Below are positions 38,766 through 43,129 of a stretch of DNA of 64,000 nucleotides, in pieces. The notes beneath the pieces were generated by a model that was not told the DNA's origin, ran no database searches, and saw only the letters and a program-made list of their open reading frames with translations. The DNA comes from Escherichia coli. GTDB taxonomy: Bacteria > Pseudomonadota > Gammaproteobacteria > Enterobacterales > Enterobacteriaceae. The stretch is from NCBI RefSeq assembly GCF_017348835.2, contig NZ_CP071375.1. One strand, 5' to 3'. Position 1 is the stretch's first letter, and each line of letters begins with the position of its first letter. A program made the translations under genes and the position numbers.

Positions 38766-38980
38766 TTGCCTGATGCGCTACGCTCATCAAGCCTACAAAA
38801 TCTATTGCAACATGTTGAATCTTCGTGCGTTTGTAGGCCGGATAAGGCGTTCACGCCGCATCCGGCATTAGGTGCTCAATGCCTGATGCGCTACGCTTAT
38901 CAGGCCTACAAAATCTATTGCAACATGTTGAATCTTCATGCGTTTGTAGGCGGATAAGGCGTTTTCGCCACATCAGGTAA
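38766..38980. repeat. Tandem pair of REP/BIME-type extragenic palindromic units (two ~110-bp near-identical copies)
   Basis: gcctgatgcgctacgct[c/t]atca[a/g]gcctacaaaatctattgcaacatgttgaatcttc... occurs twice in tandem with few substitutions. Confidence 0.8.
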
Positions 38981-40638: not shown

Positions 40639-41679
40639 TCATTTATCGGAAGACGCCTGCCACAGATTCAGCTCGCCATCGGCGATATGCTGATCAATCT
40701 GCGCCAGCTCCTCGGTGCTAAATGTCTGATTATTCAGCGCCTGCACGTTCTCCTCAAGTTGCTCCGCGCGGCTGGCACCAATCAATACCGACGTCACGCG
40801 ATCATCTTTCAGCAACCAGCTTAACGCCATTTGCGTCATTGATTGTCCACGCTGCTGTGCCATTTCATTCAATAAGCGCAGGCTGTTGAGGTTGGCTTCG
40901 GTGAGCATTTTCGGCGTCAGGCCACGAACTTTATTCCCTTCACGATGCATCCGTGAATCTTCAGGAATGCCGTTGAGATATTTTCCGGTCAGCAATCCCT
41001 GAGCCAGAGGAGTAAAGGCAATGCAGCCCACGCCGTTATTTTGCAGGGTATCCAGCAGGCCGCTTTTATCCACCCAGCGGTTCAGTAAATTGTACGAAGG
41101 TTGATGAATTAACAGCGGAATTTTCCACTCGCGCAGTAACTCGACCATTTTTTGCGTCCGCTCAGGCGAGTAAGAGGAGATCCCGACATAAAGCGCCTTA
41201 CCGCTTTGTACCGCATGAGCCAGCGCAGAGGCGGTTTCTTCCATCGGCGTATTTTCATCGACGCGATGAGAGTAAAAGATATCGACATACTCAAGCCCCA
41301 TACGCTTCAGGCTTTGGTCGAGGCTGGCGAGCAGGTATTTACGTGAACCGCCAGAGCCGTACGGGCCGGGCCACATATCGTAGCCAGCCTTGGTAGAGAT
41401 AATCAGTTCATCGCGATAAGCGGCAAAATCCTCCCGCAGCAGGCGACCAAAGTTCTCTTCTGCGCTTCCTGGAGGCGGCCCGTAATTGTTGGCTAAATCA
41501 AAGTGCGTAATGCCCAAATCAAACGCTTTACGCAGGATCGCACGCTGTGATTCCAGCGCGTTAACGTGACCGAAATTGTGCCATAAACCGAGCGATAACG
41601 CGGGCAGGCGTAAACCACTTTTTCCGCAATAGCGGTACTGCATCTGCCCGTAACGTTCGGGATTCGCTAACCAGACCAT
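40639..41679 (-). CDS. yghZ: Aldo-keto reductase YghZ
   Basis: 346 aa AKR family. Confidence 0.9.
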   Translation of the reverse strand: MVWLANPERYGQMQYRYCGKSGLRLPALSLGLWHNFGHVNALESQRAILRKAFDLGITHFDLANNYGPPPGSAEENFGRLLREDFAAYRDELIISTKAGYDMWPGPYGSGGSRKYLLASLDQSLKRMGLEYVDIFYSHRVDENTPMEETASALAHAVQSGKALYVGISSYSPERTQKMVELLREWKIPLLIHQPSYNLLNRWVDKSGLLDTLQNNGVGCIAFTPLAQGLLTGKYLNGIPEDSRMHREGNKVRGLTPKMLTEANLNSLRLLNEMAQQRGQSMTQMALSWLLKDDRVTSVLIGASRAEQLEENVQALNNQTFSTEELAQIDQHIADGELNLWQASSDK

Positions 41680-41835
41680 GACCTCTCCTTTCCACCGTTC
41701 AATTTCGAAACAATGTTTCTAGTTTAGCGATTCGCCAGCGCGTATCCCGTAGTCTGGCTCACAGAGTGACGAAAAATTGGGCAAAAACACGCGCTTATGC
41801 TTTGCTTAAAACAACACCAGTTGAGGAGTGCAACG

Positions 41836-42723
41836 ATGCCGCGTTTAACCGCCAAAGATTTCCCACAAGAGTTGCTGGATTACTACGACTATTACGCTCA
41901 CGGGAAAATCTCGAAACGTGAGTTCCTCAACCTTGCGGCGAAGTATGCGGTAGGCGGGATGACGGCATTAGCGTTATTTGATTTGCTCAAACCAAATTAT
42001 GCGCTGGCGACTCAGGTAGAGTTTACCGACCCGGAAATTGTTGCTGAGTACATCACGTATCCTTCGCCAAATGGTCACGGCGAGGTACGGGGTTATCTGG
42101 TGAAACCCGCAAGGATGAGCGGCAAAACGCCAGCCGTGGTGGTGGTGCATGAGAATCGTGGACTGAATCCGTATATCGAAGATGTGGCACGGCGAGTGGC
42201 GAAGGCGGGGTATATCGCCCTGGCACCTGACGGCTTAAGTTCCGTTGGAGGTTATCCGGGTAATGATGATAAAGGTCGTGAGCTGCAACAGCAGGTTGAT
42301 CCAACCAAACTGATGAATGATTTCTTTGCCGCAATTGAGTTTATGCAACGCTATCCGCAAGCGACAGGCAAAGTGGGTATTACCGGATTTTGCTATGGCG
42401 GTGGCGTATCGAACGCGGCGGCTGTCGCGTATCCGGAACTGGCCTGCGCGGTGCCGTTTTATGGTCGTCAGGCACCCACTGCCGATGTGGCGAAGATTGA
42501 AGCGCCTTTACTACTCCACTTCGCGGAACTGGACACCCGAATCAACGAGGGCTGGCCTGCTTACGAGGCGGCGTTGAAAGCCAATAATAAGGTTTATGAG
42601 GCGTATATCTATCCGGGGGTTAATCACGGATTCCATAATGATTCCACGCCCCGTTATGACAAATCTGCCGCCGATCTTGCCTGGCAAAGGACACTGAAAT
42701 GGTTCGATAAATATCTCTCCTGA
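41836..42723 (+). CDS. yghX: Dienelactone hydrolase-family protein (intact yghX-type gene)
   Basis: 295 aa from MPRLTAKDF...; Tat-like KREFLNL signal region; DLH fold motifs; uninterrupted reading frame. Confidence 0.7.
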   Translation: MPRLTAKDFPQELLDYYDYYAHGKISKREFLNLAAKYAVGGMTALALFDLLKPNYALATQVEFTDPEIVAEYITYPSPNGHGEVRGYLVKPARMSGKTPAVVVVHENRGLNPYIEDVARRVAKAGYIALAPDGLSSVGGYPGNDDKGRELQQQVDPTKLMNDFFAAIEFMQRYPQATGKVGITGFCYGGGVSNAAAVAYPELACAVPFYGRQAPTADVAKIEAPLLLHFAELDTRINEGWPAYEAALKANNKVYEAYIYPGVNHGFHNDSTPRYDKSAADLAWQRTLKWFDKYLS

Positions 42724-42841
42724 TAGGTTTATCTCTTACGGGATTACGTCTTAAACAAGCATGAAAAAATAGCGTGCGCAAAAGTCGTTCTTTGCCTAAA
42801 ATATTGCTATATATGATGATATATAGCGAATGAGGTGAACG

Positions 42842-43129
42842 ATGAATAACCATTTTGGTAAAGGCTTAATGGCGGGATTAAAAGCAACGCATGCCGACAG
42901 TGCGGTTAATGTGACAAAATTCTGTGCCGATTATAAACGCGGTTTTGTATTAGGCTACTCACACCGGATGTACGAAAAGACCGGAGATCGCCAGCTTAGC
43001 GCCTGGGAAGCGGGTATTCTGACGCGCCGCTATGGACTGGATAAAGAGATGGTAATGGATTTCTTTCGTGAGAATAATTCCTGTTCTACGTTGCGCTTTT
43101 TTATGGCCGGTTATCGCCTCGAAAATTGA
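42842..43129 (+). CDS. yghW: YghW (DUF2623)
   Basis: 95 aa ORF, remembered sequence. Confidence 0.8.

Follow-up and report, generated by a model that had tools for sequence, protein, structure and literature searches.

The product of yghX has a direct structural counterpart in PDB 4ZV9 (released 2015), which represents the protein encoded by the same gene in Escherichia coli O157:H7 Sakai. This structure has the same catalytic triad as the YghX analyzed here; across residues 59-295 the two sequences share 98% identity, and the solved portion differs at three positions (V69F, R93K, and S135N); it should be noted, however, that the construct begins at about residue 59, lacks residues 1-58, and is silent on the N-terminal segment. 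A more distant relative, ClcD of Pseudomonas knackmussii (PDB 1DIN), shares the fold of YghX at 24-26% identity and also has a Cys-Asp-His triad and a Glu near the oxyanion region (Glu36 in ClcD, Glu106 in YghX), but unlike YghX it is a cytoplasmic enzyme of 236 residues that functions in chlorocatechol degradation and has no N-terminal extension. A 2026 preprint on the purified E. coli enzyme ("EcoDLH") reports that it has no phosphotriesterase activity and that its active-site cysteine is oxidized or modified in the crystal, and an older proposal placed yghX among the candidate cPHB polymerases on the basis of its GxCxG motif. In K-12, the yghX locus routinely serves as a "pseudogene," that is, a neutral integration site, and this is the use made of it in most papers that mention yghX; a small protein encoded in K-12, YqhI, has been detected by chromosomal epitope tagging (PMC6001520). 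An intact yghX is already on record, since RefSeq names it in thousands of genomes and NCBI maintains a dedicated family model, and the same is true of the O157 crystal structure, the purified protein, and the K-12 stump, which is a named small protein.

The gene examined here lies in a stretch of 64,000 nucleotides of E. coli DNA (contig NZ_CP071375.1), which is referred to as the window. The features at this locus, with window coordinates, are as follows.

41836..42723, + strand: intact yghX coding sequence, YghX family hydrolase (open reading frame list and sequence; NF041440; Pfam; RefSeq annotation of strain PE164)
41823..41828, + strand: Shine-Dalgarno sequence GAGGAG, 7 nt before the yghX ATG (read directly from the sequence)
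41836..42009, + strand: N-terminal 58 codons, candidate Tat signal peptide with putative cleavage after Ala58 (Pfam, family alignment, hydrophobicity)
42010..42720, + strand: catalytic α/β-hydrolase domain of the DLH fold, residues 59-295 (identity to PDB 4ZV9, Foldseek, alignment with ClcD)
41944..41945, + strand: TA of codon 37, deleted in K-12 and related strains and present in the window (pairwise alignment)
42305..42306, + strand: CC of codon 157, of which one C is deleted in K-12 and both are present in the window (pairwise alignment)
40639-41679, strand opposite to yghX: neighboring gene gpr/yghZ, aldo-keto reductase
42842-43129: neighboring gene yghW
43318 onward: neighboring gene hybO

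The yghX frame extends without interruption from the ATG at 41836 to the TGA at 42721-42723 (295 codons plus stop). An earlier note made from the letters of this DNA had described a continuous frame of about 295 codons, an N-terminal motif with a Lys-Arg pair, SKREFLNL, and an α/β-hydrolase body, and all three are borne out, the motif being residues 26-33 of YghX. The NCBIfam model for YghX, NF041440, matches residues 3-294 with 586.5 bits (cut-off 460; E 8e-177), and the Pfam DLH model, PF01738, matches residues 85-294 with 163.9 bits against a cut-off of 21 (E 5e-48), scores that are far above chance in both cases; residues 1-36 correspond to a 36-residue N-terminal domain, PF23678 (YqhI-like). 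Strain PE164 is 100% identical over window positions 41700-42800, and its RefSeq coding sequence, which has the same coordinates and the same start at 41836, is named "yghX: YghX family hydrolase." An in-frame ATG at 41797, which would give a product of 308 residues, was rejected as the start because it is without a Shine-Dalgarno sequence and because both RefSeq and the N termini of family members favor 41836.

The gene order gpr-yghX-yghW-hybO is identical in the annotated K-12 and PE164 loci and is the E. coli arrangement; 5,425 of the 5,426 complete E. coli genomes gave a match to a segment of 1,101 bp around yghX. In strain ZH063, the gpr gene beside yghX is annotated as truncated (L009, 1-280). 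No σ70-like site was detected on the + strand ahead of yghX in a simple scan for promoters and terminators. Beyond the gene, a perfect inverted repeat, GCTATATAT-N4-ATATATAGC, occupies window positions 42806-42827, 14 nt upstream of the start codon of yghW, and may serve as an operator or belong to the promoter region. The Rfam family naRNA4, a REP-derived nucleoid-associated RNA, matches positions 38836-38906 (+), outside yghX, and the 68.1 bits of this match exceed the gathering score of 59.5.

The reading that we consider probable is that the window carries the intact ancestral form of yghX, that the gene encodes an exported hydrolase with a Cys triad and a KR-type Tat signal, and that K-12 has lost this enzyme. 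According to this reading, yghX encodes a precursor of 295 residues, in which residues 1-58 most likely constitute a long Tat signal peptide that is a natural KR variant; this peptide would direct export of the folded enzyme into the periplasm and would be cut after Ala56-Leu-Ala58, and residues 59-295 form a hydrolase of the DLH fold in which Cys186-Asp233-His264 is predicted to hydrolyze an ester, lactone, or thioester. K-12 and its relatives lost the enzyme when a 2-bp deletion was followed by one of 1 bp, and they still translate the first 36 codons within the 47-residue YqhI. The analysis shows the identity and intactness of the gene, the K-12 lesions and how common they are, purifying selection, the fold, and the triad; Tat export, the cleavage site, and the substrate class are inferred.

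The fold of the catalytic domain is well defined. The AlphaFold2 model of YghX superimposes on 4ZV9 with an rmsd of 1.0 and a TMt of 0.99 in Foldseek, and the same program aligns it with 1DIN and its variants at TMt values of 0.81-0.85 (E about 1e-16). YghX has a nucleophile elbow, Gly184-Phe-Cys186-Tyr-Gly188 (GxCxG), together with Asp233, His264, and Glu106, the last of which is part of an HENRG motif; Cys186, Asp233, and His264 align with C123(S), Asp171, and His202 of ClcD variants, and Glu106 aligns with Glu36. In a curated alignment of 36 diverse full-length members of the YghX family, Cys186, Asp233, His264, and Glu106 are kept in 34, 36, 34, and 31 members, respectively. Judged by these alignments, the triad of YghX is Cys186-Asp233-His264, and covalent catalysis by Cys186 is the best supported mechanism, the substrate class probably being an ester, lactone, or thioester.

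The substrate itself is likely to differ from that of ClcD. Arg206 of ClcD is a carboxylate-binding residue, and the corresponding position in YghX is occupied by Asn268, which is Asn in 31 of the 36 family members. No chlorocatechol pathway context was found around yghX, whose neighbors are gpr, yghW, and the hyb genes, and because E. coli has no chlorocatechol pathway, YghX probably acts on a different compound. YghX therefore does not show the features expected of a carboxymethylenebutenolidase (EC 3.1.1.45), having Asn268 at the position of Arg206 and no such pathway context. The name "dienelactone hydrolase," which the earlier note had applied to the gene, is therefore appropriate as a label for the fold, as indicated by PF01738 and Foldseek, but not as a demonstrated activity. 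The neighborhoods of three distant homologues (P0122, P0126, and P0131), which are on short contigs with unrelated neighbors, gave no functional clue, and no report on the localization or substrate of YghX and no export experiment was found in the literature on yghX or on Tat-linked dienelactone hydrolases and carboxymethylenebutenolidases.

The N-terminal segment of YghX consists of a pre-motif helix, the motif Ser26-Lys-Arg-Glu-Phe-Leu-Asn32, a moderately hydrophobic stretch, Lys52-Pro53, and Ala56-Leu-Ala58. When compared with the Tat consensus, S/T-R-R-x-F-L-K, the motif has Lys in place of the first Arg. Among 604 relatives of YghX recovered at E ≤ 1e-30 from 1.84 billion representative proteins, those that retain the N terminus have, after a conserved H-G-x-(I/L/M)-x, an RR pair in 46 cases, KR in 11, and another combination in 2. 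In the curated alignment, the column of Lys27 contains Arg in 29 and Lys in 7 of the 36 members, Arg28 is Arg in 34, and Phe30 is Phe in 32, whereas at the putative cleavage site Ala56 (−3) is present in 25 and Ala58 (−1) in 30. The family consensus thus reads (S/D)-R-R-x-F-L followed by an uncharged stretch rich in Ala, Gly, and Thr and often by Pro-Asn-Tyr-Ala-x-Ala. HybO, which is encoded 600 bp downstream of yghX, is an established Tat substrate, and the best 13-residue Kyte-Doolittle mean of YghX, 1.75, compares with 1.56 for HybO. Natural KR Tat signal peptides exist, an example being that of Salmonella TtrB, and they share with YghX the KR pair in an S-x-R-x-F-L context, a weakly hydrophobic region, and an AxA sequence; YghX differs from them in that its motif is preceded by an additional conserved helix of roughly 25 residues (PF23678). 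We know of no cofactor or chaperone for YghX.

Three distant members of the family (P0204, P0214, and P0228) have the pre-motif helix and an RR pair, followed by a lipobox (LAAC) in place of AxA, a long linker of Ala, Pro, and Thr, and the hydrolase domain. These proteins look like Tat-type lipoprotein versions of the YghX enzyme, a lipobox and long linker ahead of a catalytic domain being a hallmark of an exported lipoprotein.

The curated Tat models TIGR01409 and PF10518 do not match E. coli YghX at E ≤ 10, whereas the HybO control passes with 29.8 bits; TIGR01409 gives one RR homologue 15.1 bits, short of its cut-off of 16.7, and detects no more than 6 of the 36 family members at E ≤ 1. In addition, Lys36 and Asp49 interrupt the hydrophobic stretch of YghX. 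Because the curated models miss the E. coli protein, its assignment as a Tat substrate is based on the motif and the family comparison. The KR-variant Tat signal proposed in the earlier note is thus favored by the family columns (Arg in 29 of 36 and 34 of 36 members at the two positions of the pair) but finds no match among the curated models; export through such a signal is nevertheless a plausible and reasonable prediction, and it is the only element of that reading that goes beyond what is on record. Weighing these features, we lean toward Tat export of YghX.

It is also conceivable, but unlikely, that YghX is a cytoplasmic protein in which residues 1-58 form a permanent three-helix cap or interaction domain that merely resembles a Tat signal. 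The structural predictions are in its favor. In the AlphaFold2 model of full-length YghX (whole-chain pTM 0.93), residues 1-60 have pLDDT values of 91-95 and form helices at residues 11-21, 27-37, which carries the KR pair, and 44-51; when residues 1-62 alone (window positions 41836-42021) were modeled with their own alignment, the same three helices were obtained, with a mean pLDDT of 89.7 and a pTM of 0.72. Signal peptides are usually modeled poorly, so that such a confident model is odd for a segment of this type, and the failure of the Tat models to recognize YghX, the presence of KR rather than RR, and the two charged residues in the hydrophobic stretch, Lys36 and Asp49, are in keeping with a cytoplasmic location. 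Against it, the family consensus is that of a textbook Tat signal, with (S/D)-R-R-x-F-L, an uncharged Ala/Gly stretch, and AxA, and the members with a lipobox and linker fit an export signal and not an integral domain. The depositors of 4ZV9 left out exactly residues 1-58, and what remained crystallized as a complete domain; moreover, the 62-residue N-terminal model resembled no PDB structure in a Foldseek search (best E 3.3). The approximately 25 residues that precede the arginine pair are conserved throughout the family (PF23678; consensus DLYDxY.H), and since the variants with a lipobox and linker retain the pre-motif helix, this helix appears to be tied to the signal and not to the enzyme core.

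The unusual conservation of the segment around the Tat-like motif in the YghX family, and the confidence with which it is modeled, nevertheless form a modest thread. It might be supposed that the first 58 or so residues go beyond a plain signal peptide and are an autonomous three-helix module, in which the conserved pre-motif helix, the helix with the KR or RR pair, and part of the hydrophobic stretch are predicted to fold together, a proposal that we regard as doubtful. If it were true, the module could shield the hydrophobic region, bind a partner, or prevent the enzyme from becoming active before it is exported by Tat and cleaved, and the initial two-thirds of the module would persist in K-12 as YqhI.

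A different outcome of targeting, in which the N terminus is an uncleaved Tat (or Sec/YidC) signal-anchor that keeps the enzyme bound to the inner membrane on its periplasmic side, is quite improbable. It would draw on the same targeting features as the signal peptide, and the N-terminal segment is strongly conserved from end to end, even around the putative cleavage site (PNYALAxQV), which may mean that it is retained in the mature protein. However, the uncharged stretch comprises only about 12 residues (Tyr37-Phe48) and contains Gly-Gly, which makes it short for a stable transmembrane helix, and the frequency of Ala at −3 and −1 (25 and 30 of 36 members) is what signal peptidase I would be expected to require.

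The relationship of the window allele to that of K-12 is clear from pairwise alignment. The yghX gene of K-12 MG1655 is annotated in RefSeq as "frameshifted" and has 885 bp, as compared with 888 bp in the window; the two genes differ by eight substitutions and two deletions, and the DNA identity over window positions 41700-42800 is 98.5%. The first deletion removes 2 bp at gene positions 109-110 and the second removes 1 bp at gene position 470/471. Because the deletions total 3 bp, the frame is restored after codon 157, but a three-frame translation shows that the intervening 120 codons are read out of frame and are rich in stops. The earlier note had described the K-12 gene as a frameshifted pseudogene and had suggested an alignment to locate the frameshift; the description is correct, the lesions are at codon 37 (2 bp) and codon 157 (1 bp), and the K-12 frame is not intact. 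The yghX gene of the window has neither deletion and is not the K-12-type pseudogene allele.

The frame-0 product of the K-12 gene stops after 47 residues (MPRL...LAAKCGRRDDGISVV), of which 36 are native and 11 are out of frame (MG1655 locus extract L001, 2637-2780), and the published sequence of YqhI is exactly this stump (PMC6001520). Since YqhI is made in K-12, the promoter and start site of yghX are still used there. The K-12 pseudogene, with YqhI, thus shares its locus, its neighbors, and the residues of its first 36 codons with yghX of the window, but it yields only a 47-residue product, whereas the window gene encodes the full enzyme of 295 residues.

The distribution of these lesions was determined in the 5,426 complete E. 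coli genomes. Of the 4,995 genomes scored at the 2-bp site, at least 1,248 have the exact K-12 junction, the figures for this site being lower bounds; at the 1-bp site, 1,197 of 5,383 genomes have it. K-12-type lesions therefore affect about 22-25% of the complete genomes, and roughly three-quarters of the genomes are without the K-12 deletions. The carriers of the K-12 junctions include many laboratory derivatives of K-12 as well as isolates from humans, pigs, poultry, soil, and sewage. Strain AVS0467 has the K-12 single nucleotide polymorphism haplotype with only the 2-bp deletion (yghX at L003, 437-1322), which indicates that the 2-bp lesion preceded the 1-bp lesion. Other lesions are distinct from those of K-12: strain IAL7252 has an independent +1 insertion of A at gene position 241 (L004, 437-1325), and strain NCTC9041 matches no more than the final 16% of the 1,101-bp yghX query, most of the gene having been deleted there. 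Inactivation of yghX has thus occurred repeatedly within E. coli.

In spite of these losses, the intact alleles are under strong purifying selection. Among four intact E. coli alleles, dN/dS is 0.04-0.12 at dS values of up to 0.23, and the differences between intact alleles of divergent lineages are mostly synonymous. Citrobacter, Pseudescherichia, Enterobacter, Kosakonia, and Leclercia have collinear proteins of 294-299 residues that are 85-92% identical to YghX. The collinear relatives, the purifying selection, and the frequencies of the lesions together identify the intact gene as the ancestral and majority state, which is selected, and the K-12 pseudogene as derived. The view that yghX of the window is open by chance, a dispensable gene that is drifting to loss and whose intact copy is functionally irrelevant, would accommodate the repeated inactivation (the K-12 double deletion in 22-25% of genomes, the intermediate in AVS0467, the +1 insertion in IAL7252, and the near-complete deletion in NCTC9041), the growth of K-12 without yghX, and the treatment of the locus by engineers as a neutral integration site, but ongoing purifying selection at this level of divergence, the conservation of the protein across several genera of Enterobacteriaceae, and the intact catalytic residues speak against it, and it is quite unlikely to be correct.

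The proposal in the earlier note that this strain retains the ancestral functional enzyme is accordingly upheld with respect to the ancestral intact state, for which the relatives and dN/dS speak, but not with respect to any rarity of that state, as some three-quarters of the genomes are without the K-12 deletions. K-12 is in this respect an incomplete reference for E. coli: about one-quarter of complete genomes share its broken yghX, and most strains keep a conserved and selected YghX enzyme. With regard to the individual allele, codon 93 (42112-42114) specifies Arg in the window but Lys in K-12, in three other divergent E. coli alleles, and in PDB 4ZV9, and Arg93 is a private conservative substitution of the window allele.
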